Of a stretch of DNA of 64,000 nucleotides, positions 5,291-36,074 are shown in pieces. Origin of the DNA: an uncultured Selenomonadales bacterium (GTDB lineage: Bacteria > Bacillota > Negativicutes > Selenomonadales > Selenomonadaceae); contig CALFJB010000056.1 of the NCBI GenBank assembly GCA_937877565.1, positions 11,151 through 75,150 of the forward strand, given 5' to 3'. Position 1 is the first letter of the stretch; every line of letters begins with the position of its first letter. The notes beneath the pieces are model-generated. The model was not told where the DNA came from. It saw only the letters and a program-made list of their open reading frames with translations, and did not search any database. Made by a program: the position numbers and the translations under genes.

Positions 5291-6825
5291 TACTGAACGT
5301 CCATATCTAAATCGTTGCGAAGTTTGACGGCTTCGGCAATATGTTTGGCGGAAATTTCAGCCGCGCCGCCGTCCAAATCTGCGATTGTGCGCCCAACTTT
5401 TATAATTCGGTCGTAGGAACGCGCAGAAAGTTTTTTCGTTTCAAAAACATCCTTCAAAAGTTTTTCGGCGTCTTCAGTCAATTTGCAAAATTCCTGCAAC
5501 ATTGCATGATTCATTTGTGCGTTGCAGAAAAGATTATATTTTTGAAGGCGTTGCAGTTGAATTTCACGTGCGGCGGAAACTCTTTCACGGACTGCGGCGG
5601 AAGTTTCAGCCTTTCTTTTTGAAGTTAAATCCTCGTACTTTACGCGCGGTACTCTAATATGAATGTCAATCCTATCTAAAAGCGGTCCGGAAAGTTTGCG
5701 CGTATAACGTTTAATTTCAAGCGGCGAACAGTTGCAGGTATGATCTTTATCGCCGTACCAACCGCACGGGCAGGGATTCATCGCACAAATTAAAATCATA
5801 CTGGAAGGAAAAGTTAAAGTGCCGTTGACGCGGCTAACTGTAATTTGTCTTTCTTCCAACGGCTCGCGCAGGGATTCAAGCACATTTTTTTTAAATTCAG
5901 GCAATTCGTCCAAAAATAAAACGCCGTGATGTGCAAGCGTAACTTGTCCGGGTTTTGGAATAATTCCGCCGCCAATAATCGCTGCAGTTGAGGCGTCGTG
6001 ATTCGGATTCTGAAACGGGCGTTTAGTAATTAAGCCGCCGTTACGTTTCAATTTTCCTGCCACGCTGTAAATTTTTGTAACTTCAAGAGCCTCTTCGTGC
6101 GTCAATTCCGGCAAAATTGAACTTACGCGCTTTGCAAGCATAGTTTTACCACTGCCGGGAACGCCTACCATTAAAACGTTATGCCCGCCCGCCGCCGCAA
6201 TTTCCAGCGCACGTTTCGCCATAAATTGCCCTTGCACGTCTGAAAAATCGTCAACCAATTCTATAAAGCCGTCAACTTCTTCGACAGGTTGAGGCGTTGC
6301 AGGTTTAATTTCAAATTCGCCTTGAAAAAATTCTACCAATTCAATTAAAGTTTGAGGCGCGTAAACTTCGACGCCTTCAACAAGTAAAGCCTCGTTAATG
6401 TTGTCCTGCGCGACGACAATTTTTTTAAAACCTGCGTCACGGGCTGTAACAGTCATTGGCAAAATTCCATCAACGGCGCGGAGTTTACCTTCAAGCGACA
6501 ATTCAGAAATTAATACAAACTCGTTTAAAATTTCGGTAGGAAATTTACCTTGAGCCGCCAAAAGTCCAACGGCTATTGGCAAATCTAAGCCGGAACTTTC
6601 TTTGCGAACGTCAGCAGGGGCAAGATTGACGGTAACTTTTTCTTGACGAAGACGCAAGCCGGAATTTTTTATGGCGGTGCGGACGCGCTCCTTTGCCTCA
6701 CGAACGGCAGCATTTGCAAGTCCAACAACGTCAAATGACGGCATACCGTTCGCACTGTCAACTTCAACTGAAATTATTAAGCCGTCAACCCCTTGTGTCG
6801 TTGCTCCAAAAGTTCTGGCGTACAA
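5290..6825 (-). CDS. comM: YifB/ComM family Mg-chelatase-like AAA+ ATPase
   Basis: Walker A GVPGSGKTMLAKR, Walker B GVLFLDELPEF, Cys cluster CPCGWYGDKDHTCNC, 511 aa. Confidence 0.9.
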   Translation of the reverse strand: MYARTFGATTQGVDGLIISVEVDSANGMPSFDVVGLANAAVREAKERVRTAIKNSGLRLRQEKVTVNLAPADVRKESSGLDLPIAVGLLAAQGKFPTEILNEFVLISELSLEGKLRAVDGILPMTVTARDAGFKKIVVAQDNINEALLVEGVEVYAPQTLIELVEFFQGEFEIKPATPQPVEEVDGFIELVDDFSDVQGQFMAKRALEIAAAGGHNVLMVGVPGSGKTMLAKRVSSILPELTHEEALEVTKIYSVAGKLKRNGGLITKRPFQNPNHDASTAAIIGGGIIPKPGQVTLAHHGVLFLDELPEFKKNVLESLREPLEERQITVSRVNGTLTFPSSMILICAMNPCPCGWYGDKDHTCNCSPLEIKRYTRKLSGPLLDRIDIHIRVPRVKYEDLTSKRKAETSAAVRERVSAAREIQLQRLQKYNLFCNAQMNHAMLQEFCKLTEDAEKLLKDVFETKKLSARSYDRIIKVGRTIADLDGGAAEISAKHIAEAVKLRNDLDMDVQ

Positions 6826-6850
6826 TGTTTTAACCTCCAGTCATTAAAAT

Positions 6851-7141
6851 TCAAGCGTCTATGTCGATTGTTGAAGAAAATCTTGTGTGTTGCCGCCTGT
6901 AAGTGTCATTATCTTTTTGTCGAAGTTCTTCTTCAATCTGCGCGAGTTGCCGCTCAAATTCGGCGCGTTTTGCAGGATTATTTTGAATTTGCTGTGATAA
7001 TTTTTTCTGATGATTTTTCAAATTTTCAATTTTAGAATCAACTTCATCTGTTGAGGCGGTTGTAATTTCTTCAGGTTGACGCGCTTTTTTTGGCACTTCA
7101 ATCGGCTGATAATTGTTTGAATTTACGCCGCTAATATTCAT
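6851..7141 (-). CDS. hypothetical coiled-coil protein
   Basis: 96-aa ORF in the operon gap, Gln/Glu-rich predicted helix; no family recognised. Confidence 0.4.
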   Translation of the reverse strand: MNISGVNSNNYQPIEVPKKARQPEEITTASTDEVDSKIENLKNHQKKLSQQIQNNPAKRAEFERQLAQIEEELRQKDNDTYRRQHTRFSSTIDIDA

Positions 7142-7183
7142 TTTAAAATCTCCTTCAATCGATTTTAATCAGAAATAATTTCG

Positions 7184-7903
7184 TCAATTTTTGCCCTGTT
7201 CAACGCTTTTAATTTCGTCTTTTGAGGCACCTTTCAGCGCGTAAGTATCAAAGGCGGGGCTGTCAGGTATTCGTATTTCTAAACTTGTAATTCGGCAAAA
7301 AGCCGCCTTGCCTTGATTAATGCTCACGTCAAATACATGCCCGCCGTGCTTTTTATCTTCAGAAATGAAATGCAAATGCCAACCGGCGGCGTTAATTCCG
7401 TCCATATAATCTGGGTAATATACGCAAACTAACGAGCCTTTTAAATTTTCAAAAATAAATGCTTTTTGAGTAACGCTCAAAGCATCTTTCAGCGTCAAAT
7501 GATGCGCCACTGTACCTGATTCAGATCGGGCGTCTACCTTTGAAAAATCGCCGTCAATTCTAACCGCGTACATTGAATTGAGTCCAAAATCTTCCTCAAT
7601 GCAAACTGTCAACCATTCTTTGAGATTTTCGATTGTGTCAATTTTTCCAAATTCTTCGATTCTGTTGGATTGAAAATTGCAGACAGCGGCAAACGGTACG
7701 CCGCGTTTATCTTCAGCCATAACTATATCGCCGTTATTTTTAGCGCGGTAACATTTCCCGTCCAAAACAATCATTTCGCCGTCAACATCTTCAAAAGTTC
7801 CAAGTCCCGTATCGCCATTTTTGAGCAATTCTTCAACTGTTATAACAGACTTTGAAAATCCCAATGCCAACGCCTGCAGCGTGGATACTTGATAAAATTT
7901 CAT
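7184..7903 (-). CDS. alsD: alpha-acetolactate decarboxylase
   Basis: MKFYQVSTLQALALG..GLGTFEDVDGEMIVLDGKCY..GWHLHFISEDKKHGGHV match the family. The start was moved to ATG 7903, preceded by GGGAGGAA. Confidence 0.85.
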   Translation of the reverse strand: MKFYQVSTLQALALGFSKSVITVEELLKNGDTGLGTFEDVDGEMIVLDGKCYRAKNNGDIVMAEDKRGVPFAAVCNFQSNRIEEFGKIDTIENLKEWLTVCIEEDFGLNSMYAVRIDGDFSKVDARSESGTVAHHLTLKDALSVTQKAFIFENLKGSLVCVYYPDYMDGINAAGWHLHFISEDKKHGGHVFDVSINQGKAAFCRITSLEIRIPDSPAFDTYALKGASKDEIKSVEQGKN

Positions 7904-7919
7904 TAAATTTCCTCCCGTT

Positions 7920-8294
7920 TTACATTTCGGAAATAACTTCAAAGGCGTTTTCAATGTGGTTAATTTTAAAATCCTTGCCCGCCGAAATAATTTCTATCAC
8001 GTCGAAACGACAAGCGCAGTTGCAATATTTTTCATCTTGCAAAAAAACGCTTGCCGCCTCGATAATTTTTTTCTGTTTGCGAATATTCACAGCCTCCGCC
8101 GGTAAACCGTGCCGAATATTGGAGCGCGTCTTCACTTCAACAAAAACTACGACGCCGCCGATTTCTGCGATTATGTCAATTTCTGCCGTGCGGATTCGAT
8201 AATTTCTCTCTAAAATTTTGTAGCCGTGATTTTCTAAAAATTTTGCCGCTAAATTTTCGCCGGTATTGCCCAACTTTTTTGTAGCGTCTGACAT
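7920..8294 (-). CDS. yraN: YraN family (UPF0102) endonuclease-like protein
   Basis: GENLAAKFLENHGYKILERNYR..EIDIIA..VVFVEVKTR signature, 124 aa. Confidence 0.8.
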   Translation of the reverse strand: MSDATKKLGNTGENLAAKFLENHGYKILERNYRIRTAEIDIIAEIGGVVVFVEVKTRSNIRHGLPAEAVNIRKQKKIIEAASVFLQDEKYCNCACRFDVIEIISAGKDFKINHIENAFEVISEM

Positions 8295-10425: not shown

Positions 10426-10773
10426 TTATATTAAAATTTCGTGTGCAAGAATTTTTTCAACTTGTCGTTTCAATTCCGGCAATTCGTTTTTTATGGTAAT
10501 GTAAACGTCGCGCATTCTCAAAGTATCGTATTTGTGCGCCGCAATATCTCTAAATCCTGCTATTGCTTTCCATTCAATGTGAGAATTTTTTTCTCGAAAT
10601 TCCGGCGTTAAAGTTTTTACCAATTCGCCAACTCGAATTACGGACATTGCCATTGCAAGTTTTAATGTTTTACTTTGCAGAAAATTTTCTTTGGAAACGT
10701 CTCCAAAAACTTCAAGTGCTTCTTCAATGGCGTTAATAATTTTTTCTAAAGTAATTTTATCTCTATGCTGCAT
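10426..10773 (-). CDS. hepT: HepT (DUF86) toxin of a HepT/MntA module
   Basis: RX4HXY motif FRDIAAHKY; start ATG 10773 overlaps the mntA stop (ATGCAGCATAG). Confidence 0.8.
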   Translation of the reverse strand: MQHRDKITLEKIINAIEEALEVFGDVSKENFLQSKTLKLAMAMSVIRVGELVKTLTPEFREKNSHIEWKAIAGFRDIAAHKYDTLRMRDVYITIKNELPELKRQVEKILAHEILI

Positions 10774-11050
10774 AAATTTCAATTTCCTTTTCAACTTCAA
10801 GAAAATCTTCAGCCTCAAGCGGTCCGTGTATAATGTCAACTTTAACGCCAAGAATTTCTTCCAACTTAATCATCAAACTGGACAATTTAAGCAAAGAAAC
10901 CGCGTCAGTTTCAAATTCAACAATCAAATCAACGTCGCTATTTTCAGTGGCTGTACCGTTAGCGCGGGAGCCAAAAAGCGTAACTTTTTTCAAATTGTAT
11001 TGCGGCGCAATTTCGGCAACAACTTTTTTAATATCGTCAATCGTCAGCAT
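10763..11050 (-). CDS. mntA: MntA nucleotidyltransferase antitoxin
   Basis: Minimal NTase motif GSRANGTATENSDVDL; start at ATG 11050 after GGTGA. Confidence 0.8.
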   Translation of the reverse strand: MLTIDDIKKVVAEIAPQYNLKKVTLFGSRANGTATENSDVDLIVEFETDAVSLLKLSSLMIKLEEILGVKVDIIHGPLEAEDFLEVEKEIEIYAA

Positions 11051-11090
11051 TTTTATCACCTTATTTATCAAATTTGCCGCGAATATCTTA

Positions 11091-11378
11091 CTATGCTGCG
11101 TAAAGTTCAATTTCTTTTTCAATTTCGAGTAAGCTGTTTTTGGTAATTCCGCCGCGACTTATAACGTCAACATTTAAGCCGAAAATATCTTCAAGTTTAT
11201 GCTTTAATGAAATGTGTTTAAGCAAGCCCGTTTCTTCAGGAAAATCAACAATCAAATCAATATCGCTATTATCCGCAGCTGTACCATTTGCACGAGAACC
11301 AAAAAGCGTAACTTTTTTCAAATTGTATTGCGGCGCAATTTCCGCAACAACTTTTTTAATATCGTCAATCGTCAGCAT
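11091..11378 (-). CDS. second MntA-like nucleotidyltransferase (tandem paralog, no own HepT)
   Basis: First ~40 residues MLTIDDIKKVVAEIAPQYNLKKVTLFGSRANGTA are identical to the neighbouring MntA. The upstream leader is also duplicated. Confidence 0.75.
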   Translation of the reverse strand: MLTIDDIKKVVAEIAPQYNLKKVTLFGSRANGTAADNSDIDLIVDFPEETGLLKHISLKHKLEDIFGLNVDVISRGGITKNSLLEIEKEIELYAA

Positions 11379-11388
11379 TTTTATCACC

Positions 11389-12822
11389 TCACTTATCAAA
11401 TTCGCCGCGTATATCTTCAACCGGCGGCGCAATAGGATAATTTCCACTGAAACAGGCATCACAAATTGGCAAGCCGCCCGCCATTTCTTTTAAACATTCA
11501 AGCGGCAAATATCCAAGTGAATCTGCGCCAATGTGTTTGCAAATTTCCTCAACCGTGCGCCCGTGTGCAATAAGTTGATCTTCGCTGGGAATATCAATAC
11601 CGAAATAGCACGGGTGATAAAACGGCGGACTTGAAACGCGCATATGTACTTCCTTTGCGCCCGCGTCTCGTAACATATTTACAATTTGGTTGCTTGTAGT
11701 ACCGCGCACAATCGAATCATCAATCATAACAATTCGCTTGCCTTCAACCACGTCGCGCAGGACGCTTAATTTGACTTTGACACTTTGAACGCGGGTAGAC
11801 TGTTTGGGCTTTATAAAAGTTCTGCCGACGTAAGTATTTTTCGTAAATGCAATTCCATAAGGTATACCTGACGCCATAGAATAGCCGACCGCCGCCATAT
11901 TGCCGGATTCCGGAACACCAACAACTAAATCTGCGTCAACGGGATGAGCCTTCGCCAAAAGTTTACCGGCAGTAATTCGCGCCTTCGTTACGCTCCTGCC
12001 GTCAAAAGTTGTATCAGGGCGGCAAAAATAAATAAACTCAAAAACGCAGCGTGCAGTTTTATCGTGTTCAATCGCCAAAGTCATATCAGATTTAATTTCG
12101 CCGTTGGGCAGAATTGTAACAACTTCGCCGGGCAAAACGTCACGAACAAATTTAGCGTTAATCGTTTCAAGGGCGCAAGTTTCAGAAGTCAAAATATAGG
12201 CGTTGTCCATTTTACCGATAACCAACGGGCGAAAACCAAATGGATCACGTGCGCCAATAAGTTTACGCGGACTTGCGATAACAAGCGAATATGAGCCCTT
12301 AACTTTTTTCAACGCTTTAACGGTTGCATCTTGTACGGACTTTGCATGAACTCTTTCACGCGCAATGTGATAGGCGATAGTTTCAGTGTCGGTGGTAGTC
12401 TGGAAAATTGCGCCGTTCATAGCCAATTCGCGCCGAAGTTGCGGAGTATTAACCAAATTGCCGTTATGTGCAAGCATTAGCGTACCTTTTATATAAGCCA
12501 AAACCAGCGGCTGTGCATTTTCACGGGTAGAGCCGCCCGCCGTCGAATAGCGAACGTGTCCAATTCCCAAATTTCCTTTCAACGCCATTAAATTACTTTC
12601 TCTGAAAACTTGATTGACGCGCCCCAAATCTTTTTGACAAAGTACGCTGTCTTTGCCGTCGAAAGTGTCAGTAACGGCAATACCTGCGCTTTCCTGCCCG
12701 CGATGTTGCAGGGCGTACAAGCCGTAATAAATCGTTGGGGCAACGTCGCCGCCGTCCAAGTCATACATACCGAAAACGCCGCACGCCTCACCAACTGAAA
12801 TTTCCATATCGCCAAAATCCAT
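11389..12822 (-). CDS. purF: amidophosphoribosyltransferase
   Basis: Ntn cysteine CGVFG after a short propeptide, PRPP loop VMIDDSIVRGTT, C-terminal Cys cluster. Confidence 0.95.
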   Translation of the reverse strand: MDFGDMEISVGEACGVFGMYDLDGGDVAPTIYYGLYALQHRGQESAGIAVTDTFDGKDSVLCQKDLGRVNQVFRESNLMALKGNLGIGHVRYSTAGGSTRENAQPLVLAYIKGTLMLAHNGNLVNTPQLRRELAMNGAIFQTTTDTETIAYHIARERVHAKSVQDATVKALKKVKGSYSLVIASPRKLIGARDPFGFRPLVIGKMDNAYILTSETCALETINAKFVRDVLPGEVVTILPNGEIKSDMTLAIEHDKTARCVFEFIYFCRPDTTFDGRSVTKARITAGKLLAKAHPVDADLVVGVPESGNMAAVGYSMASGIPYGIAFTKNTYVGRTFIKPKQSTRVQSVKVKLSVLRDVVEGKRIVMIDDSIVRGTTSNQIVNMLRDAGAKEVHMRVSSPPFYHPCYFGIDIPSEDQLIAHGRTVEEICKHIGADSLGYLPLECLKEMAGGLPICDACFSGNYPIAPPVEDIRGEFDK

Positions 12823-12847
12823 TTAATTCGCTCCCTTCGGTCGCTCA

Positions 12848-12884
12848 TTAGGGGTTAGGGATTAGGGGCTAGGGATTAGGGATT
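12848..12884. repeat. heptamer array (TTAGGGG TTAGGGA TTAGGGG CTAGGGA TTAGGGA)
   Basis: Read directly; between the mnmG stop and the purF start. The adjacent leader 12831-12843 is the complement of CGACCGAAGGGAG. Confidence 0.85.
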
Positions 12885-12935
12885 TGAAAAACTAGCCGCT
12901 ACTACCTTTCCTTTTTAAAAGCTATTATATTTGCT

Positions 12936-26742: not shown

Positions 26743-27003
26743 CTACTCCTTCAGCTTTTGTATTTCAAATTTAATCTGATGAAGTTCCTCGCGCAGGATT
26801 GTTTCAAGTGAATTTAATCGACTTTCAAAAATTTCAATGCGCTGTACAAGGAAATTGGTTTGTAATTGAAGTTGAGAAACTGCATTTGACAGCGCACTTA
26901 CGGAATCAGCCAATTCTTTCATTTTATCAATTCCTTTGAAGATTAAAATACAGTTGATAACGCCGAGTGCGCCGAGCTCCAGAAGTTTTGCGTACTCTTC
27001 CAT
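26743..27003 (-). CDS. small membrane-anchored coiled-coil protein (possible holin or lysis accessory)
   Basis: N-terminal hydrophobic helix LGALGVINCILIF followed by a heptad-rich helix; assignment is speculative. Confidence 0.4.
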   Translation of the reverse strand: MEEYAKLLELGALGVINCILIFKGIDKMKELADSVSALSNAVSQLQLQTNFLVQRIEIFESRLNSLETILREELHQIKFEIQKLKE

Positions 27004-27015
27004 AATTTCACCGCC

Positions 27016-28236
27016 TTAAATATCAGCGATGAACAGGTTTTCGTCGTCTGGCATTGCGGAATTTTCATTTTCGGGATTGAGATTTAAAAGTTGGACAGGG
27101 GCGGTTAAATCATAATCAAAACCAGTAGCAGAGACGAACGGAATATAGCGAACAGTGCCGCTTGTTACGCCGTACAAATTCGTTTCAAAGGTGACTCTAC
27201 CTCTTGAATAATAAGTAGTTATTTTTGTTCCGTTTTCAATAGCTGTAACTGTGGGAGTATCCCTTAGAATCAGCAAATCTGAATTTTGATTAAAGCCGTA
27301 AAAATTCAGCGTTGCTTTAGATTTATCAAAAATAGCAATAGTATTATTGCCTTCGGCGGTGCAAAGTGAATAATTGCCACGAGAAGAGTACTCTTTTAAA
27401 CCGATGAACTGATAACCGTGCGCTGTGGTGTCAATCGTTGCATTTTTAGCAAAACTATGAGTACTAAAAAGCGTACAATGTTGCCCTGTGTTTAAGTATA
27501 AATTAGACTCGCGTGCCTTAAGGCTGCAATAATCGCCGGAATTGTTAAAATAATACGCATTGTCTAAAGTGACGTGGTCGCCGCTGTTTGTAACCCTTCC
27601 ATAATTACAATAAACGCTGTCGCCGGTATTTGTACAAAAGGGAGTATAAAAATTAGAACTTTGAATACTCACATTGTTGCCGCTATTTGAAACTGAAGAA
27701 TACGTATATATTTTAGTGTCCGAGTCATAGTCAGTGCAACTATCGTTGACGATTATTGAACAAGACGCGCCGCTGTTTGTAATTGTTTTTGCGCCGCTGT
27801 AATTAAATGTGCCCTTCGCCGAAATAGTTACACTGTCGCCGGTATTTAAAATTGAATCGTGCCCATTGCCGCAGGCAATGCTGACGCTGTCGCCGATATT
27901 TTCTATTGTGTCGTCGCCCGCGCCGGTTACGATTGTTACCGCGTCCAAACTATTTCTTACCACGTCGTTATATTCGCCGGTATGAATTTGCTCAAAATCT
28001 GAATTGATTATACTGACTGCGCGGCTTTCAGCGTATATGACGTTGTCCGGCACTATCACAACGTCGTCAGTTTCTACTTTTTCAATCGCAGTTAAAGTGT
28101 TGTCAGAAAGGCCTGCAACGTGCGCCACGAAAACCGCCACGTCTGAATCTGCCGCCAATGGATTTACGTTGCTGATGTTTTTCGTTACTTCCGCGCCGTT
28201 CGCCTTCCTCGTCGTGTAATTTATCGAATTTGCCAT
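27016..28236 (-). CDS. phage protein: small-paralog N-domain fused to a beta-helix-like repeat domain
   Basis: N-terminal 60 aa are paralogous to the 66-aa protein upstream. They are followed by more than 8 repeats of N(S/T)GD.(V/C)(S/T)(I/L). Confidence 0.6.
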   Translation of the reverse strand: MANSINYTTRKANGAEVTKNISNVNPLAADSDVAVFVAHVAGLSDNTLTAIEKVETDDVVIVPDNVIYAESRAVSIINSDFEQIHTGEYNDVVRNSLDAVTIVTGAGDDTIENIGDSVSIACGNGHDSILNTGDSVTISAKGTFNYSGAKTITNSGASCSIIVNDSCTDYDSDTKIYTYSSVSNSGNNVSIQSSNFYTPFCTNTGDSVYCNYGRVTNSGDHVTLDNAYYFNNSGDYCSLKARESNLYLNTGQHCTLFSTHSFAKNATIDTTAHGYQFIGLKEYSSRGNYSLCTAEGNNTIAIFDKSKATLNFYGFNQNSDLLILRDTPTVTAIENGTKITTYYSRGRVTFETNLYGVTSGTVRYIPFVSATGFDYDLTAPVQLLNLNPENENSAMPDDENLFIADI

Positions 28237-28237
28237 T

Positions 28238-28438
28238 TTAATCCCCCAATTCAGGTATTTCTAAATCACTCTTCGATACTTTTTCAATTTTTTCTACAGA
28301 ATTGTTGCTCAATCCATTCAACGCCACTATAAAACTTGACAGCTCGTTATTCGTCGCGTTCGGATTTACATTGCTGATGTTGCGGGTTACTTCCTTGCCG
28401 TTCCCGCGTTTTGTTGTTACTTTTAATGTTGTTGACAT
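28238..28438 (-). CDS. small phage protein, DUF1659/DUF2922-like paralog
   Basis: MSTTLKVTTKRGNGKEVTRNISNVNPNATNNELSSFIVALNGL aligns with the N-terminus of the 406-aa protein. Confidence 0.6.
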   Translation of the reverse strand: MSTTLKVTTKRGNGKEVTRNISNVNPNATNNELSSFIVALNGLSNNSVEKIEKVSKSDLEIPELGD

Positions 28439-28463: not shown

Positions 28464-28584
28464 TTAGGTGTTAGGAATTAGGTGTTAGGAATTAGGTGTT
28501 AGGAATTAGGTGTTAGGTGTTAGGTGTTAGGTATTAGGGATTAGGGATTAGGGAAGTGTAAAACCTAAAACCTAAAACCTAAAC
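28464..28584. repeat. heptamer array forming an imperfect hairpin (TTAGGTG/TTAGGAA/TTAGGGA arm, CCTAAAA arm)
   Basis: Read directly; about 17 units. It overlaps the stop codon of the fiber gene and is followed by leader 28447-28461. Confidence 0.9.
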
Positions 28585-31500
28585 AGTAAAGCACGGCACA
28601 AATCCATACTGCAAGCACGGATTATCTGCATACATCCTGCCCATATACAATCCTAAATAATTTGTACCGTCCGTCGAACGACTCCAATTTCCAAAATATA
28701 GGTACAAGTGTCCCTCATACGTCATCGTCTGAAATGTATTCCCCGCTGCAAAAAAATCATACCGCTCTTGAAATGAATAATCTTCACTGTAACCCGACGG
28801 CAGCCAACTTGCATGCGTCGTCCCCCGCCATTCGTACCACGACATTCGCCATATCTTCTTTATTTCATATTCCCTGCCATTGTACTTTTTGCACTCCCTT
28901 ATATACGCCGCGGGTCCTCCATCTATCAAACTGTAAAAATTGTCTGGATCGTAATTAAATGTAAACGCCGCGCCATCACTGCCCGTCATTCCTTCACTAA
29001 AATTCAGCGGCGATAATACCTCCCATTGCGTAAGATGAGAGCCGGCCGTCCTAAATACCGCAAAATGTGCCCGCTTATCGCCTTCAATCGTCGCGTTGTG
29101 ATTTATTCCCATCAGTACCGCCACTAATTCTGTACCGCTTCCAAAACTTAAATCGCCCAAACTGCCTTTTACCGTCAGCTTTTTAGTTTCGCCCACGTCA
29201 AAATTTTCCGCCAGCGTTCCATTACGCGCCCACGTCGCTATCTTCGCCCAACTTAAATCATTCAACCTCAACGCTATTTTTAGCGGAACAATTCTAAAAT
29301 GACGCGAACGCTTATAATTGGCAGTCTCACTTAGATATATTTCAATGCTATATTCTATATCCGTTCGGGCTACATAATCCGGCGAATCTAAAAGCGTTTC
29401 TCCTTCTTCCCAAGTTTCTGCAGTAATGTGATATGACCTTATACCCGTCAACGTCAGCTTACCTGCCGTGCTGTCAAATGTCGATTCAAAAAAATAATTC
29501 CACGCTTTATGAAGTGTCTTTGTTATAATGCCGTCGCCGGTTTTACTTGTAACTGTAAAAGTGCGCGTCAGCTTCTTTGGCGTAAAATTTGTACGGTAGT
29601 AAATTGATTCAGCGGGTACGCCGCCAATTACTTCAAAAGTGCTGCCGTCGCTGACTGTAACCGTGAATGACGGTTCAGCTTTTTCAATCGTGAAGGTAAA
29701 AGTTTTTGCGCCGTAACTGCCATCAGCCCACGTGCAACAATTTCGCGGCGTCAATGTTATTTCGTAACTGCCCGCGTTCGTAAATGAAGTTGCCGCGTCT
29801 TTCGTCCCGCCGCCTGTACAGAATAAAAATAAACCATTCGTTGCCAAGTCTGAATCGCCCGCAATCGCTGAAAAGCCTTCAGTCCATTTGTGCGCCGTCC
29901 CGTCGTAAGTTATCGTTACATCCTGCGCGAGCGTGCTGAAATAATCCGGCAGTGCGTACGGCTCCAAATTTACCAAAATACTTTTATCAGCAGTCGTTCC
30001 ATCAGACCACGTGTAATTTGTTTTATCTTTCAAACTGACAGTGCTTGCTTTTATTTTTGACGTGTGAGAATCATCGAACCAAGACGATACTTTTGATTCA
30101 ACGACGGACACGGTAGCACCGAAATAAAAGCCGTTGGCGTTTGCATCTCTCCCGTTGGTAGTGTTTGCCTTCGTCATTAAATTCACGTCGTACCCGTTCA
30201 AAACTACGTACCAAGACATTTTACTTGAAGTTACAACCTGATAAGTTGAGCCGGTGGGAATAGGAATTGCCTGCCCGCCAATTTCCCAATGTATTTCGTA
30301 AGTTGCCGCAGTCAAGCCGTCGAATTGGTAACAAGTTGGTTTTTTCAAAGTGAAAGTTGCCGTATAATTTCCAACGTTCGCCGCCGAATAGACGCCGCCC
30401 AGTGTCATTAAAGTTTCATCGTAATTTTCAAACTCTAAAACTTTTGTACTGCCATCTGAAACAAAGTAAGTTGAAGTCGCCGCCGGGCGTGCAACTGTCG
30501 CCTTCAAAATTTTAAAATCCACGTAAATTGGGTCAGTTGCGCCGTCGTCTTCCCATTCGCAGCTGTCATTGGGCGTAAAATAGCAGGTATAATCGCCGGG
30601 CAAAATCATTCCAACATAGCCCGTGCCTTCAACGTAACCATCGCCGTAACGTTGAAATTCCCTGCCGCTCCAATTCGCAACCGTCGCCGAATGATATTTT
30701 CCGTCGTACGTGTGAACCGTCGTAGTTATAATTGGCTTAGCAATCGGCTTGCGGTTAATCGTCCACGTTACATTTTTAGCAGTTGTGGTTCCATCAGACC
30801 ACGTGTAATTTTCCTTCGGCGTTATTGTTGCCGTATAAGTGCCGGCGTTTATCGCTGAATTGCCGGTTATGTCGTGGTACGTTGAATCAAAGTTTTGAAT
30901 CGTAGGTCTTTGAGTCCTGCCAAGATAGTAAGTCAAAGTCCCAACTTGTTCAAAGCCGCTTGACATTTCCTCCGTCAATTTCGCCCGTGTAATTTGCCAC
31001 GTTAAATCGTGTGGTACGCGTGCATATGCTACTTGCCCGCCGAAATATGTATTTACATTATCTTTCAGCGTCAAAGTTATTGTATAGTTGCCAACATTTG
31101 CAGCTGAAGTGTCGCCGGTTATGGTACACCATTTTTGATAATAAGTTAAATTGTATTCGCTAAGTATTGAGCCGCTCAACTTATAAACAAGCTCCGGCGT
31201 AAATTCCGCGCCGTTGTATTCGTATTCGGTGTACTTCAACGACGGCGATTTTATTTCAAGTGCTTTAATTTTCCAATTCAAAGTTATTGGCGCGGTAGTT
31301 CCATCAGTCCACGTGTAACTTGCATCTTTGAGCGTGAAAGTCAAAGAATAATCGCCGACTGTTGTAGCCTTCCACGTTCCTTCCGCCGTCATTAATTCTT
31401 CATTGTAATTTCTGACAGGCGCGGTTTGTTCTTCGCCGCTGTAATTTAAACTGTAAGAAGCTGTCGTGAAAGGCCATTTCGGCGGGGTAACTTTGTTCAG

Positions 31501-33387
31501 TGAAATGCTCCAGTCCAAATTCACGTTGTCTGTCGTTAAATCTTCCCAAACGTGGTTAGTATCTTTCAGCGCGAAAGTAACGGTATAATCGCCCGCCGCC
31601 TTCGCCGTGATTGTCCCGCTGCGCGTCATATAACTTGAATTGTAGCCGTTAATTACGACAGTTTGATTTGAGCCGGTGTAACTCAAAAGATTATTTTCAA
31701 GCGTTGGCTTAGCAAGTGGCGCGGGGTCGATTTTCCATTCAACGTCTTTTGCAGTTGTCGTCCCGTCGTTCCACTTCATATTAGTTTGCGGCGAAATTTT
31801 TAAAGTATAAGTACCGGCGTTTTTAGCTGAAGTCGTACCGCTCAAAACGTGAATTCTATAATCGTAATGCTGAATTTTTGGAGCCAAATTAGAGCCGGTG
31901 TAAGTCAAAGTTCCAACCTGCGCGAAGCCGCTGGATTGACTTGCCGACAAAACGACTTCTTCCATATGCCATTCAATCGTTTTATTTGAAGTGGTATTGT
32001 CGCTCCACACTGTGTTGTTCGTGTCTTTGAGTGAAATAATTGCCGTGTAAGTGCCAACGTTGGTTGCCTTGTTCCCGCTGATTGTTTCATACGTTGAATC
32101 AAAATCGTGGAGGAGAAATTCTTGTTCCGTGCCGTCGTAATAATAGGACAAAACAACTTCGTAGGGGATATTCAATTTCAACTTTTCCATCGTCCAAGTT
32201 ACGCTTTTTGGCGAATTGTCTTGCGTGTCGCTCCATTTGTAACCGCTTTTCGGCGTAAAAGTTACCGTGTAAGTGCCTGCGTTTTTAGCTGAAGTCGTCC
32301 CGCCAATTTCAAGTTGAGTTGAATCGTACAAATACCATATCGGCGTTTGAGTTTCCCCGTTGTAAATCATTTCTACAAGCGAATATGGTACAAATAGAAT
32401 ATCAATTCTTTCATCAACCGGCGGCGTAAATTCTATAATCTGCCAGCCTTTGGCGGTTAAAACTGCGTCTTCGTAACCTGCGGGCGGCGCGGGGACTAAG
32501 CCGCGTTTGCCGTTCGCTGATGAAGTTGGTGCTGAAAAGTCATTCAACGAATTTGATATTGCATTGAATTTACTGTCCGTGTAACTTTTCGCACTGTTCA
32601 AAGTCGCCGTCGACTTCGTATTGATTAACGAAGTCAACGTGTTTTGCAAATTTGTAATTGCAGTTTGCCGGTCTGTTACTTCGTTTGATATTGCGCTTGA
32701 AAGGTTTGTATCTTCGGTTGTACGGTCTGATATTTCCTGATTCAATCTTTGATTTAACGTCGCTAAGTTTGCACTTTGCGTGCTTGCCTGATTCTGTATC
32801 TGATCGCGCAAATTTGTATTCGTGATACTTTGCGCCGCCTGCAAGTCTCCAAGTGAAACCATTATTGCCGCTTGCGTGTCTGCTATTTCTTGACTGCGCG
32901 CCGTACTTTCTGCGTCAATCGCCGCGTTTAAATTTGTTACCGCGTTGTTTAAATCCTCGCGCAGGTTTGCATCTGCCGCCGTCCGATTCGTTATTTCATT
33001 TTCTAACTTTGAATTTAATAGCGCAGTCGCCGCGCGTTGGGCGTCGTCTTTATTTTGAATTTCGGTTTCTAAATTCTCTACCGCGTCATTTAAATCTTGC
33101 CGGACATTCGATATTGAAGCGTTCAATTCGTCCTTCGCCGTATTTATCGCCAAAGTCCGATTTTCAGTTTCAGCAGTCAACGCCGCCATTATTTCCGCGT
33201 CTGCATTCTCCCGCGTCAATTTCTCTAACGTTAAGTCGCTTCCTATTTCTGAATCTGCGTTTTTCCGGTTTTCAATCTCTTCGCCTATTACCTCTTGCAG
33301 GCGCGTTATCTCTCGTTCAAAATACGCCGTAGTTTCGGTCTCTCGCACCTGTTCTTCCGTTACCGGCGTCTTTATTATCTGCCCCAT
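28579..33387 (-). CDS. giant tail fiber/adhesin
   Basis: 1602 aa. N-terminal coiled coil, then the fibre motif GKRGLVPAPPAG, then at least 11 Ig-like repeats (..GTYT.T.T.K....W.DGTT..K.V.W.I..), then a ~300-aa C-terminal domain. Confidence 0.7.
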   Translation of the reverse strand: MGQIIKTPVTEEQVRETETTAYFEREITRLQEVIGEEIENRKNADSEIGSDLTLEKLTRENADAEIMAALTAETENRTLAINTAKDELNASISNVRQDLNDAVENLETEIQNKDDAQRAATALLNSKLENEITNRTAADANLREDLNNAVTNLNAAIDAESTARSQEIADTQAAIMVSLGDLQAAQSITNTNLRDQIQNQASTQSANLATLNQRLNQEISDRTTEDTNLSSAISNEVTDRQTAITNLQNTLTSLINTKSTATLNSAKSYTDSKFNAISNSLNDFSAPTSSANGKRGLVPAPPAGYEDAVLTAKGWQIIEFTPPVDERIDILFVPYSLVEMIYNGETQTPIWYLYDSTQLEIGGTTSAKNAGTYTVTFTPKSGYKWSDTQDNSPKSVTWTMEKLKLNIPYEVVLSYYYDGTEQEFLLHDFDSTYETISGNKATNVGTYTAIISLKDTNNTVWSDNTTSNKTIEWHMEEVVLSASQSSGFAQVGTLTYTGSNLAPKIQHYDYRIHVLSGTTSAKNAGTYTLKISPQTNMKWNDGTTTAKDVEWKIDPAPLAKPTLENNLLSYTGSNQTVVINGYNSSYMTRSGTITAKAAGDYTVTFALKDTNHVWEDLTTDNVNLDWSISLNKVTPPKWPFTTASYSLNYSGEEQTAPVRNYNEELMTAEGTWKATTVGDYSLTFTLKDASYTWTDGTTAPITLNWKIKALEIKSPSLKYTEYEYNGAEFTPELVYKLSGSILSEYNLTYYQKWCTITGDTSAANVGNYTITLTLKDNVNTYFGGQVAYARVPHDLTWQITRAKLTEEMSSGFEQVGTLTYYLGRTQRPTIQNFDSTYHDITGNSAINAGTYTATITPKENYTWSDGTTTAKNVTWTINRKPIAKPIITTTVHTYDGKYHSATVANWSGREFQRYGDGYVEGTGYVGMILPGDYTCYFTPNDSCEWEDDGATDPIYVDFKILKATVARPAATSTYFVSDGSTKVLEFENYDETLMTLGGVYSAANVGNYTATFTLKKPTCYQFDGLTAATYEIHWEIGGQAIPIPTGSTYQVVTSSKMSWYVVLNGYDVNLMTKANTTNGRDANANGFYFGATVSVVESKVSSWFDDSHTSKIKASTVSLKDKTNYTWSDGTTADKSILVNLEPYALPDYFSTLAQDVTITYDGTAHKWTEGFSAIAGDSDLATNGLFLFCTGGGTKDAATSFTNAGSYEITLTPRNCCTWADGSYGAKTFTFTIEKAEPSFTVTVSDGSTFEVIGGVPAESIYYRTNFTPKKLTRTFTVTSKTGDGIITKTLHKAWNYFFESTFDSTAGKLTLTGIRSYHITAETWEEGETLLDSPDYVARTDIEYSIEIYLSETANYKRSRHFRIVPLKIALRLNDLSWAKIATWARNGTLAENFDVGETKKLTVKGSLGDLSFGSGTELVAVLMGINHNATIEGDKRAHFAVFRTAGSHLTQWEVLSPLNFSEGMTGSDGAAFTFNYDPDNFYSLIDGGPAAYIRECKKYNGREYEIKKIWRMSWYEWRGTTHASWLPSGYSEDYSFQERYDFFAAGNTFQTMTYEGHLYLYFGNWSRSTDGTNYLGLYMGRMYADNPCLQYGFVPCFTV

Positions 33388-33497: not shown

Positions 33498-33540
33498 CCT
33501 AACACCTAACACCTAAAACCTAACAGCTAACACCTAAAAC
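33498..33540. repeat. heptamer array (CCTAACA/CCTAAAA/CCTAACAG)
   Basis: Read directly; encodes the last residues (LGVSC stop) of the 392-aa ORF. Confidence 0.85.
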
Positions 33541-34698
33541 ATATCCAAACACTTCCGCCCCGCCTTCTACTTCAATCCTGCCGCTCACTTCACGTAATGT
33601 ATCACCCAGCGTCCTATACTTAAACCGCGTCTTCTCCAATTCAGAAAAATCTAACGTCATCATCTGCCAATTCTCCGCCGCGTAATATTCATAGCTCGCC
33701 ACTATTTCTAACCCCGCCGACGCCGTCAGTTTCAAACTCGAAATTCCTGTATCCAATTCATAGTCAAAAAATGGCAAGCCTCCTATTTCCAAATGTAACG
33801 TGTCCTGCGCCACGTACCTATCCGGCAAATATATCGTCTGCTCAATTCCCGCCGTTTGCCCCAATATCACATTTTCGGCGCGTTTAGTTTCCATATTCAA
33901 ATTTACCCACGCCTTCAACTCTCGACCTTTCAACGGCTCGTGTTTTACTAACAAATAGCAAGTTTTCAAGTCCGCCGAATAGTTTTCTGTCTTCGTGTAA
34001 AACGTCCGAACATTCGCCGCATTTTTATTTGAGTCCTCTACATATTCAATTTTTAAACTGTCGATTGACGCCGCGTCCGTCCCGTCCAACGTCGTTACTA
34101 CAAAGTTTGTACGGAACTGAATCGCTTGCGCCACTTGCCCTTCAAATAAAGTGTAATAGTCCCAGTCGCTCCATTCGCCGCTAATCTTTCTAACCCGCGC
34201 ACTCGTTACCGCCGTTGCATTGTTTTCAGTCGTCTGACGTTCAGTCAATTTTACGATTCTTGCATTTTCCGCCAACTCAAAAATAGGCGAATAACTTAAA
34301 CGCGTGTAAACGTCGTTGTAGCTTGAAACTTTCAACGCCAATTTGATTTTCGGCATCACTTCAAAATCAAACGGCGCACTCAACGCAATTATCGGGTAAA
34401 CTTTTTTATTGACGAACGCCGGAATATTTTCCAGCTCCAACAATTCGCCGACCGTGTTCCCGTATTCCATCACGTCTTCAAATTCCCCACGGTACGGGTA
34501 CGGGTCCAATATCCCGTTCACAAATCTATACAGCGCGTCTTCTATCTTGAATATTATTCGCCGCATTGTTCCCGGCGGTTCTGTCCCGCCTATTTCAAAG
34601 CCTCTACAATTTGTCTCGTACGTTAAATCAAATGGTGCTAGCGATTTTATTAAGCCGCGTTTCAAAAATTTGTAACTGCTGCTCCCGTAATTTTTCAT
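33520..34698 (-). CDS. hypothetical phage structural protein (392 aa)
   Basis: Sits between the small-gene cassette and the fiber gene; ATGA overlap with the upstream gene; no family recognised. Confidence 0.55.
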   Translation of the reverse strand: MKNYGSSSYKFLKRGLIKSLAPFDLTYETNCRGFEIGGTEPPGTMRRIIFKIEDALYRFVNGILDPYPYRGEFEDVMEYGNTVGELLELENIPAFVNKKVYPIIALSAPFDFEVMPKIKLALKVSSYNDVYTRLSYSPIFELAENARIVKLTERQTTENNATAVTSARVRKISGEWSDWDYYTLFEGQVAQAIQFRTNFVVTTLDGTDAASIDSLKIEYVEDSNKNAANVRTFYTKTENYSADLKTCYLLVKHEPLKGRELKAWVNLNMETKRAENVILGQTAGIEQTIYLPDRYVAQDTLHLEIGGLPFFDYELDTGISSLKLTASAGLEIVASYEYYAAENWQMMTLDFSELEKTRFKYRTLGDTLREVSGRIEVEGGAEVFGYVLGVSC

Positions 34699-34889
34699 AA
34701 CTCCTCGCCGTCCATATAGTTTTCTATGTCAAAATTCTTCCAGTCGAACTTGCTATTGTCCGTAAATATCGCCGTCACTGCCTTTAATATTTCCGCAGTT
34801 TCAGCCGCCGTCTTCCCGTCCAATACCTTCAATATTTCGGTTATCGCCTTGCGGCTGCTGTCTTTTTGTAATATTTTTTCCAATTTCAT
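34695..34889 (-). CDS. hypothetical small phage protein (64 aa)
   Basis: Start ATG 34889 lies 8 nt after GGAGG; the stop overlaps the next start (ATGA). Confidence 0.5.
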   Translation of the reverse strand: MKLEKILQKDSSRKAITEILKVLDGKTAAETAEILKAVTAIFTDNSKFDWKNFDIENYMDGEEL

Positions 34890-34922
34890 TTTTATTACCT
34901 CCAACCTAAAACCTAAAAAAGA

Positions 34923-34944
34923 AATGACTGCACACGCCCGCGCC
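34923..34944 (+). repeat. left arm of a perfect 22-bp inverted repeat (AATGACTGCACACGCCCGCGCC)
   Basis: Exact reverse complement of 36053-36074. Confidence 0.95.
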
Positions 34945-34952
34945 CAATTATT

Positions 34953-35195
34953 CTATCTTAAATCTAAATTAGTTGTTGTTTTGCGAATTGTTCGCGCGCC
35001 GGTAAATTGTAAAAAGCCTGCTCCGCCTTTATCGCCGAGTAAAGCTTGTGTAGTTCTCCCAATCGCACTTACCGCGTTAATTTGCGCCGCTGTCAACCCG
35101 GTTTTCGGGCTGTCTACTGTCAAAACGCGCGTGTCGTTATCAGTAAACTTCATATCTATTTTCAATTCGCTTACTTGCGTTACTTTGTCTGCCAT
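34953..35195 (-). CDS. small phage protein, paralog family member (80 aa)
   Basis: Good RBS (AGGAGGAG); shares the pattern beta-strand, D/G-K/R, T, P, A-rich helix with its neighbours. Confidence 0.6.
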   Translation of the reverse strand: MADKVTQVSELKIDMKFTDNDTRVLTVDSPKTGLTAAQINAVSAIGRTTQALLGDKGGAGFLQFTGARTIRKTTTNLDLR

Positions 35196-35207
35196 TTAAA
35201 TCTCCTC

Positions 35208-35414
35208 CTATTCCGCCAATAGTTCATTCACGCTTTGTTCATCCCTAATTACCGTGTCCGAATATGTATTGGTCGTCAAATTGATTAAAGCGCGGGCAAA
35301 TGTGTCTATGTTCGCGGCGGTTGCTGCAGGGTTCGCGTGCGTCATCGTTTTTACCGATTCATTACCCAGCGCGTCTGTACTTTTTAAAATCAACATCCTA
35401 TTCACTGTCGCCAT
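35208..35414 (-). CDS. small phage protein, paralog family member (68 aa)
   Basis: ALGNESVKTMTHANPAATAANIDTFARALINLT resembles the 66-aa protein. Leader and upstream stop context are duplicated from the neighbouring gene. Confidence 0.6.
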   Translation of the reverse strand: MATVNRMLILKSTDALGNESVKTMTHANPAATAANIDTFARALINLTTNTYSDTVIRDEQSVNELLAE

Positions 35415-35426
35415 TTAAATCACCGC

Positions 35427-35672
35427 CTATTCCACGTTCAAATTAATTTCTTCTTCTTCGACGGTTACTACGGTTGCCGCGCTGATACTTGCAAACGGAC
35501 TGCCCGCCTCTGAAATGTACGTGTCTGATATCGCCGACGCGTCGAAGTTTTTAATTTTTGTACGCAATGTTTCGATAACGATTGTATCACTTGCGAATGG
35601 TCCAAATTCCAATTCGCGCTTGTCGTCGTTCGCAAATGCATTTGTTATTTTAAATTTTGTCGTATTCGCCAT
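35427..35672 (-). CDS. small phage protein, paralog family member (81 aa)
   Basis: Preceded by the conserved leader TCGACTGAAAGGAGA; acidic C-terminal tail. Confidence 0.6.
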   Translation of the reverse strand: MANTTKFKITNAFANDDKRELEFGPFASDTIVIETLRTKIKNFDASAISDTYISEAGSPFASISAATVVTVEEEEINLNVE

Positions 35673-35757: not shown

Positions 35758-36033
35758 TCAAGGCTCTTCCTCTTCTACTTCTACTACGCTATATTCTACT
35801 ACCTTTTTGCCGGTTGTATCGTCATAGCGTCCACCGGCTAACCCTGTTACAAACGCGCTGTATACTGTCTTTGCCGCCGCTAAATCCGCGTTCGTCTTGA
35901 TTCCAGGCATTGAAAATGTCTTCTTTCCTGCTGCCGTATCGCCGCTCTGCGCTATGTTCCCGTCCATCGTCAACGCTACGTCAAATTTCACTGTCGCCGC
36001 TTGCGGACTGCTCCACTGCTTTATTGTTGCCAT
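35758..36033 (-). CDS. small phage protein, paralog family member (91 aa)
   Basis: GKKTFSMPGIKTNADLAAAKTVYSAFVTGLAG fits the family pattern; acidic tail EVEEEEP. Confidence 0.6.
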   Translation of the reverse strand: MATIKQWSSPQAATVKFDVALTMDGNIAQSGDTAAGKKTFSMPGIKTNADLAAAKTVYSAFVTGLAGGRYDDTTGKKVVEYSVVEVEEEEP

Positions 36034-36052: not shown

Positions 36053-36074
36053 GGCGCGGGCGTGTGCAGTCATT
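36053..36074 (-). repeat. right arm of the perfect 22-bp inverted repeat
   Basis: GGCGCGGGCGTGTGCAGTCATT on the plus strand, about 10 nt upstream (mRNA sense) of the Shine-Dalgarno sequence (GAGGAGG, 36037-36043) of the 91-aa gene. Confidence 0.95.

Follow-up and report, generated by a model that had tools for sequence, protein, structure and literature searches.

Small DUF1659 and DUF2922 proteins as candidate docking modules in the tail-fibre region of a defective Selenomonadaceae prophage

The tail-distal module of a prophage carried by an uncultured Selenomonadaceae bacterium, probably of the rumen (contig CALFJB010000056.1, positions 11,151 to 75,150; this stretch of 64,000 nucleotides is called the window below) encodes six proteins that are small or bear a small domain. 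Four of them, p91, p81, p68 and p80, are the products of consecutive genes, which we call the cassette, and the other two, p66 and p406, are encoded by a gene pair further downstream (Table 1; proteins are named by their length in amino acids, aa). We tentatively propose that these small proteins are docking modules, which would heterodimerise and attach fibre or receptor-binding proteins in contractile-tailed prophages whose hosts are probably Selenomonadaceae. A role as a structural part or adaptor has the best support, because the cassette occurs in fixed order in tail-fibre modules and the same domains are fused to a Tail_P2_I baseplate protein and to large solenoid proteins. In the window itself the prophage is defective.

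To which families do the six proteins belong? The Pfam gathering cut-offs are 24.1 bits for DUF1659 (PF07872) and 25.5 bits for DUF2922 (PF11148). In the former family p66 scored 44.2 bits, residues 11-59 of p406 31.0 bits and p68 a marginal 24.8 bits; in the latter p80 scored 28.1 bits. Neither p81 nor p91 matched any Pfam family, and neither reached the DUF1659 cut-off. The initial annotation, made from the letters alone, had likened the small proteins to these two families, and it was right for four of the six. It had also aligned p66 with residues 1-60 of p406, which was borne out at 44% identity over residues 1-61 (E 3e-18, small database), and p66 and p68 were 30% identical over 60 residues. 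Family profiles built from relatives were compared with hhalign. The p81 family matched phage-type DUF2922 over its full length (94%, E 1e-7) and the canonical, cellular DUF2922 at only 27%, and it matched, at 96%, the proteins of about 90 aa that take its place in the cassettes of other prophages. For p91, a coherent alignment was obtained with 19 position-equivalent proteins of 67-93 aa; the match of this family to DUF1659 was weak (10%, E 0.003), and its members gave sub-threshold Pfam matches to DUF1659 (4 of 20) as well as to DUF2922 (3 of 20). Single-linkage clustering joined p91 to DUF1659, an assignment that was set aside as the linking edges were only about 15 bits. DUF1659 and DUF2922 profiles, phage-type or canonical, gave no significant match to each other (1-4%). 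A single paralogous family of six, as first suggested, could not be demonstrated by sequence: profile-profile similarity did not unite the proteins in one superfamily, and what is shared is only a predicted beta-beta-alpha-beta topology. By Pfam and profile comparison the "six paralogs" are thus reduced to three DUF1659 proteins, one DUF2922 protein, one that we class as DUF2922-like and one, p91, outside the assigned families. The initial observation is otherwise largely upheld, and its interpretation in part. A profile search with p80 found 223 phage-type homologues in public data, and sequence searches of the PDB with p66 and with the p392 and DUF2922 families were negative.

We then compared the window with related loci, namely 20-kb neighbourhoods of p392 homologues, IMG/VR contigs, and metagenome contigs with close p80 homologues. 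In 18 loci including the window, the cassette was complete and in the identical order F4-F3-F2-F1 (p91 type, p81 type, DUF1659, DUF2922). Each time a p392-like gene followed it directly, and baseplate and large tail genes preceded it. It was absent as a whole from 10 other examined loci, nine of which keep the p392-like gene. The position of p68 is taken in most relatives by a 134-212 aa protein with an N-terminal DUF1659 domain. The genes of p81, p68 and p80 are in the same reading frame, separated by spacers of 12 nucleotides each (p81/p68, 35412-35429; p68/p80, 35193-35210) of the form TAG-G(A/C)GG-...-TAA-ATG, in which the stop overlaps the ribosome-binding site of the next gene (TAGGCGG, TAGGAGG). 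This layout points to coupled translation of the three genes. The same frame and spacer pattern was found in L083 and L084, and L082 has the same frame with 12- and 15-nucleotide spacers and TAA as the first stop. We also considered stop-codon read-through joining the three proteins and rejected it, because each spacer holds two in-frame stops and the next ribosome-binding site. A perfect inverted repeat of 22 nucleotides brackets the four-gene cassette exactly. At the same place L083 has an inverted repeat of 25 nucleotides (1212-1236, 2267-2291), 92% complementary and of different sequence; in L079 none was detected.

The fusions of these domains in relatives are the most informative result. 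With phage-type profiles, seven relatives were found to encode, in the baseplate region, proteins of 340-477 aa that have a DUF2922-like domain at the C-terminal end; in two of the seven it is a tandem pair. A 453-aa protein joins an N-terminal Tail_P2_I domain (1.2e-11) to two C-terminal DUF2922-like domains (3.8e-17 and 2.9e-15). From the baseplates of P2, Mu and pyocins, we take the Tail_P2_I protein to be the baseplate wedge protein to which fibres attach. DUF1659, for its part, opens the 134-212 aa cassette proteins and proteins of 305, 325, 406 and 734 aa, taking up their first 60 residues, and it closes a 599-aa protein, encoded just upstream of a p392-like gene, as its last 55 residues. 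Payloads vary from protein to protein, and the small domain is conserved.

To compare the small proteins at the level of fold, p81-p68-p80 were modelled by AlphaFold2 as a single read-through chain with the stops read as Gly. The placement of rows in the alignment was checked, and free-standing p81-family rows, which MAFFT had placed on the DUF2922 segment, were left out. The model had a mean predicted local distance difference test score (pLDDT) of 76 and a predicted template-modelling score of 0.57 overall. Block-mean pLDDT was 81-93 in the p81 segment (strands 4-13 and 18-27, helix 30-41, strand 59-76), 58-72 in the folded core of the p68 segment (strands 92-99 and 105-113, helix 119-130, strand 136-142) and 78-90 in the p80 segment (strands 163-176 and 181-187, helix 195-208, strand 219-235). 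In a separate AlphaFold2 model of p406, residues 1-56 showed strands 2-10 and 16-24, helix 30-41 and strand 47-56. Hence p81, p68, p80 and the p406 N-terminus have the same predicted beta-beta-alpha-beta fold, and the common layout noticed at first is supported by the models for these four, p91 lying outside them.

The remainder of p406 was modelled as a parallel beta-solenoid (mean pLDDT of the whole protein 75.7). Over residues 66-140, four-residue strands recur every nine residues at block-mean pLDDT 77-95 (91-95 over residues 81-140), and beyond this stretch the solenoid is less regular and extends to around residue 365. The motif N[ST]G..[VC].[ILC] occurs eight times, with two further variants, where the initial annotation had counted more than eight repeats of N(S/T)GD.V(S/T)I. 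Over residues 104-139 xGxGxDxIx nonapeptides alternate with NxGDxVxIx. Besides p406 itself only seven homologues were found in public data. Foldseek comparison with the PDB gave tailspikes (8x8m, 8opz, 3th0), alginate/pectin lyases and an RTX-like domain as top matches, all weak (best E 0.059, none at E<=1e-3); the tailspike and lyase matches had TM scores of 0.28 or lower, and the RTX-like domain was matched at probability 0.77. The suggested beta-helix thus stands as a modelled solenoid with weak tailspike and lyase matches, the specific depolymerase or receptor-binding function attached to it being putative.

Both families also occur outside prophages. DUF1659 was present in 203 of the 262 genomes of the bacterial family. 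In the canonical loci a DUF2922 gene adjoined that of DUF1659 in 16 of 16 cases, with DUF1659 first in 15, and this arrangement was seen in the bacterial family beyond the window's genus. When three such loci were read gene by gene, one was found with an extracytoplasmic-function (ECF)-like sigma factor (Sigma70_r4_2, 4.9e-13) and another with YvrJ (1.8e-9). Phage-type and canonical profiles matched at 99.4% and 99.6% in hhalign, and by this comparison the phage-type and canonical families are clearly homologous. In the genome of the window, DUF1659 occurs only as the three prophage copies. More broadly, DUF1659 matches in the window's genus were mostly weak and of phage type, and the strong canonical DUF1659 (1e-15 to 1e-21 in almost every other genus of the family) seems to be absent from most genomes of this genus. 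The phage-type DUF2922 profile found nothing at E<=1e-14 in 400 other genomes from 278 genera of the phylum. The phage type thus appears to be a divergent subfamily confined to this bacterial family. A survey had been suggested of whether these DUFs are generally associated with phage tails, and this was not borne out: as the canonical pair keeps company with an ECF-like sigma factor and YvrJ, and the phage type is restricted to one lineage, the DUFs are not generally phage-tail proteins. In Staphylococcus aureus, SroA (DUF1659) and SroB (DUF2922) bind each other, and not themselves, in a two-hybrid assay; SroA stabilises sigS mRNA and SroB counteracts this effect (bioRxiv 10.1101/2022.10.19.512975).

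The third member of the cellular set was also found in the prophage. The p86 protein, which begins with a membrane helix and also has a coiled coil, was linked by jackhmmer to 18 position-equivalent proteins. YvrJ (PF12841) was matched by 8 of 13 scanned members of this family (best E 1e-9) and not by p86 itself. Its place is that of a holin, as the family member in L083 precedes an amidase gene. Since the p86 family is YvrJ-like, the late region of the prophage holds all three families of the cellular triad, which suggests that the cellular module and the phage late region share ancestry. YvrJ-like genes were also found in relatives that have no cassette, so the link to YvrJ is not specific to the cassette.

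Taken together, the binding of SroA to SroB, the fusions and the fixed set of four genes suggest that the domains dock to each other. In the mechanism that we propose, DUF1659-type domains (p66, p68, the p406 N-terminus and possibly p91) would pair with DUF2922-type domains (p80, p81) as a non-covalent plug and socket. On the payload side, DUF1659 would carry the p406 beta-solenoid, the 134-212 aa cassette proteins and the 305-, 599- and 734-aa proteins. On the anchor side, the DUF2922-type domain would be a protein on its own or the C-terminal part of the baseplate wedge protein of gpI type, the usual site of fibre attachment. The cassette would then hold one pair after the other, p91 and p81 followed by p68 and p80 (p91 being assigned provisionally), and would serve as an optional adaptor beside the p392 and p1602 fibre proteins. 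Docking would couple the payload proteins to the baseplate or fibre complex. Family membership, the common predicted fold, the gene order and the fusions are observations; that the proteins sit in the virion, that the phage domains bind each other and which parts they join is inferred.

We regard this docking role as possible, somewhat short of probable, and a number of observations weigh against it. Homologues of p66 and p392 were absent from cultured phages (tblastn, 50,697 phage records), and none of the six small proteins matched a PHROG family. Fold searches with the fusion model against the PDB and BFVD gave no known tail adaptor and nothing usable; the folded core of p68 was modelled at a block-mean pLDDT of only 58-72. 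In the window-type lineage (L079, L082) no gpI-DUF2922 fusion was found, so the baseplate socket is not universal. The cellular pair works in the absence of a virion, with a sigma factor and YvrJ as neighbours, and the S. aureus work describes SroA and SroB as regulatory (bioRxiv 10.1101/2022.10.19.512975).

Small genes, translationally coupled and immediately beside large fibre-like genes, would also fit assembly factors, that is tail-fibre chaperones or scaffolds that help p392, p1602 and p406 to fold or oligomerise and are not part of the finished particle. The fact that p66 duplicates the N-terminus of p406, encoded downstream of it, agrees with this, and the C-terminal DUF1659 of the 599-aa protein could be an intramolecular chaperone. 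However, the small genes lie upstream of their large neighbours, whereas known fibre chaperones are usually encoded downstream of their client, and no chaperone family of Pfam or PHROG was matched. The fusions to a gpI-type baseplate protein and to solenoid N-termini, being permanent, are better explained by a structural part, and we consider assembly factors unlikely.

A role in late gene regulation or lysis, by SroA/SroB-like tuning of mRNA stability or by control of the YvrJ-like holin, would make the cellular module the same device without a virion. It accords with the opposed effects of SroA and SroB on sigS mRNA, with the sigma factor and YvrJ that accompany the canonical pair, and with the inverted repeat around the cassette. 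Moreover, p66 and p406 are encoded directly upstream of YvrJ-like p86, with the amidase gene next in L083; as the late region holds all three triad families, and an endolysin follows in relatives, a role linked to lysis stays alive. The main cassette, however, lies about 8 kb from the lysis genes and between tail genes, YvrJ-like genes are also found where the cassette is missing, and fusions to Tail_P2_I and to solenoids of 300-700 aa are hard to square with a soluble regulator. On balance we judge regulation or lysis quite improbable. Very unlikely, finally, are surface decorations or accessory adhesins that bind the host envelope directly and not each other: variable C-terminal extensions on DUF1659, an RTX-like solenoid in p406 of the kind found in calcium-dependent adhesins, and the optional presence of the cassette among otherwise similar prophages are in keeping with them, but it is the small domain that is conserved and the payload that varies, and mutual binding is what the strict set of four genes and the known interaction of DUF1659 with DUF2922 point to.

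The positions of the genes and of the inverted repeat are collected in Table 1. All open reading frames (ORFs) of the initial annotation were confirmed at the positions it gave, and every gene in the table lies on the minus strand. The order of transcription is sheath, p91, p81, p68, p80, p69, p392, p1602, p66, p406, p86 and p110. Upstream lies a head module of lambda type, with gpA terminase, lambda-family portal, ClpP protease, and gpD-like and gpE-like proteins.

Table 1. Features of the tail-distal module and their positions in the window
Feature	Position	Strand	Basis or remark
Tail sheath, 548 aa	36285-37931	-	phrog_23, 4.9e-68, full length
Inverted-repeat arm, upstream of cassette	36053-36074	none	22 nucleotides, perfect
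p91, 91 aa, cassette gene 1 (family F4)	35758-36033	-	no Pfam match
p81, 81 aa, cassette gene 2 (family F3), divergent, DUF2922-like	35427-35672	-	hhalign
p68, 68 aa, cassette gene 3, bare DUF1659 domain	35208-35414	-	PF07872
p80, 80 aa, cassette gene 4, DUF2922	34953-35195	-	PF11148
Inverted-repeat arm, downstream of cassette	34923-34944	none	22 nucleotides, perfect
p69, 69 aa, small conserved protein between cassette and p392	34695-34904	-	outside the families
p392, 392 aa, conserved tail-module protein after cassette	33520-34698	-	
p1602, 1602 aa, long fibre-like protein	28579-33387	-	
p66, 66 aa, free-standing DUF1659 immediately upstream of p406	28238-28438	-	PF07872
p406, 406 aa, whole gene	27016-28236	-	
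p406 residues 1-60, N-terminal DUF1659 domain	28057-28236	-	PF07872
p406 residues 66-406, predicted beta-solenoid, RTX-like in first part	27016-28041	-	AlphaFold2, motifs
p86, 86 aa, YvrJ-like membrane and coiled-coil protein, holin position	26743-27003	-	
p110, 110 aa	26389-26721	-	

The prophage in the window is defective. Its sheath shares 31-41% identity with those of Lily, Saumur and other phages. In Lily and Saumur, which have the same head and sheath genes, the sheath is followed by tube, chaperone, tape measure and baseplate genes; none of these is present in the window. Baseplate_J was not found on the window's contig, the only copies in the genome being on contigs C11 and C30. No endolysin gene follows p86 and p110, and the next gene encodes a host AMP-dependent ligase. 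Because tube, tape measure, baseplate and endolysin have been lost, the tail-fibre system seen here is a relic. The same loss makes the position of the cassette beside the sheath secondary. The initial annotation was correct that the small genes lie next to the sheath gene in the window, but this neighbourhood is not native; it is the product of a deletion. A functional pairing of sheath and cassette was rejected; intact relatives separate the two by baseplate genes. Relatives are only about 67% identical in DNA, and the deletion junction was therefore not located by DNA comparison.

In intact relatives PAAR, gpU, gpW/gp25, Baseplate_J, and Tail_P2_I or Mu Gp48 genes lie upstream of the cassette, such that PAAR, gpU, gpW, gpJ, gpI and three to five further ORFs stand between it and the sheath. 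The proteins of 643-763 aa whose genes precede the cassette (L036 rc 6271-8202, L041 rc 10615-12906) have no Pfam match and long Gly-rich C-terminal tails. Downstream, the order in relatives is p392-like, long fibre, p110-like, p66-like, p406-like and then p86-like; in L083 an Amidase_2 endolysin gene follows the p86 homologue, and host genes come next. Homologues of p392 were found in 38 of the 262 genomes of the bacterial family, located after the baseplate genes. The protein has no match in Pfam, PHROG, the PDB or phage isolates, and p392 as a single-protein query found no match in viral or genome contig collections. In one IMG/VR contig (L059, 2060-6422) the ClpP, gpD and major capsid genes are directly preceded by a p392-like gene in the place where the portal would be expected; the element is probably one more that has been rearranged or has decayed. 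Homologues of p69, which has no profile similarity to the other families, occupy the same position in L036 and L056, and ORFs of 60-70 aa are found there in L079 and L082-L084. Homologues of p1602, 1122-2745 aa long, are at the same position in all six of these loci. L036 and L083 also have a p66-like gene followed by a p406-like one; what follows the p66-like gene of L079 is a 531-aa gene truncated at the locus end, in which a DUF1659 domain was not detected.

DUF1659 and DUF2922 are widespread in this bacterial family and little studied. The cassette and the fusions supply a structural context for both, and the idea of docking fits the sole experimental result on the cellular pair. What is new here is a lineage-restricted variant in which known DUF families would have been recruited as modular tail-fibre parts, and for which no counterpart was found in cultured phages. 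If the docking role is true, it would be a new way for phages to attach exchangeable receptor-binding proteins, would offer a way into the study of uncultured Selenomonadaceae phages of rumen and gut, and would hint at the origin of the cellular module linked to sigma factor and YvrJ. In a speculative extension, which we think unlikely, DUF1659 and DUF2922 would be a general heterodimerising plug-socket pair that hangs exchangeable receptor-binding payloads on gpI and fibres, and the cellular sigma-DUF1659-DUF2922-YvrJ(-hydrolase) cassette, widespread in Bacillota, would be either a domesticated phage remnant or the source of the phage late region with its tail-fibre adaptors, YvrJ-type holin and endolysin.

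Comparison with known systems starts with the cellular one. The prophage genes resemble SroA/SroB and the Bacillota sigma-DUF1659-DUF2922-YvrJ cluster in that the same two Pfam families are present with homologous profiles, p68 and p80 are adjacent and in the order of the canonical loci, and YvrJ-like p86 is encoded, about 8 kb downstream. They differ in that they sit in a tail-fibre module, with tail genes as neighbours and no adjacent sigma factor, and in that there are several copies of each type (three of DUF1659 and two of the DUF2922 type, besides one related-looking family). The phage-type domains, moreover, are a divergent subfamily and are fused to large tail proteins. With the RTX beta-roll (PF00353), p406 shares nonapeptides, strands every nine residues, one distant homologue with a PF00353 domain and the RTX-like fold match; on the other hand, p406 itself has no PF00353 match, and its repeat spacing is irregular beyond residue 140. 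The DUF1659 domain of the p406 model (residues 1-56, 28069-28236) superposes, at the level of the domain, on phi29-type p56 and T7 Gp2, small phage inhibitors that act by protein binding (TM 0.53-0.65 on the target, root-mean-square deviation 2.5-3.9 A over about 55 columns, E at least 0.16, identity 9-13%), a likeness that may reflect shared simple topology only.

The closest functional parallel would be the exchangeable anchors of receptor-binding proteins. CBA120 and G7C have branched tailspike systems, and fibres attach to wedge proteins of the gp7/gpI type. No sequence or fold similarity to such adaptors was found, and unlike them the modules described here also occur as four free-standing proteins of 66-91 aa. 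The likeness lies in organisation: a small conserved terminal domain carries variable payloads, the genes are distal to those of gpJ and gpI, and a candidate socket is present at the C-terminus of a gpI-type protein.

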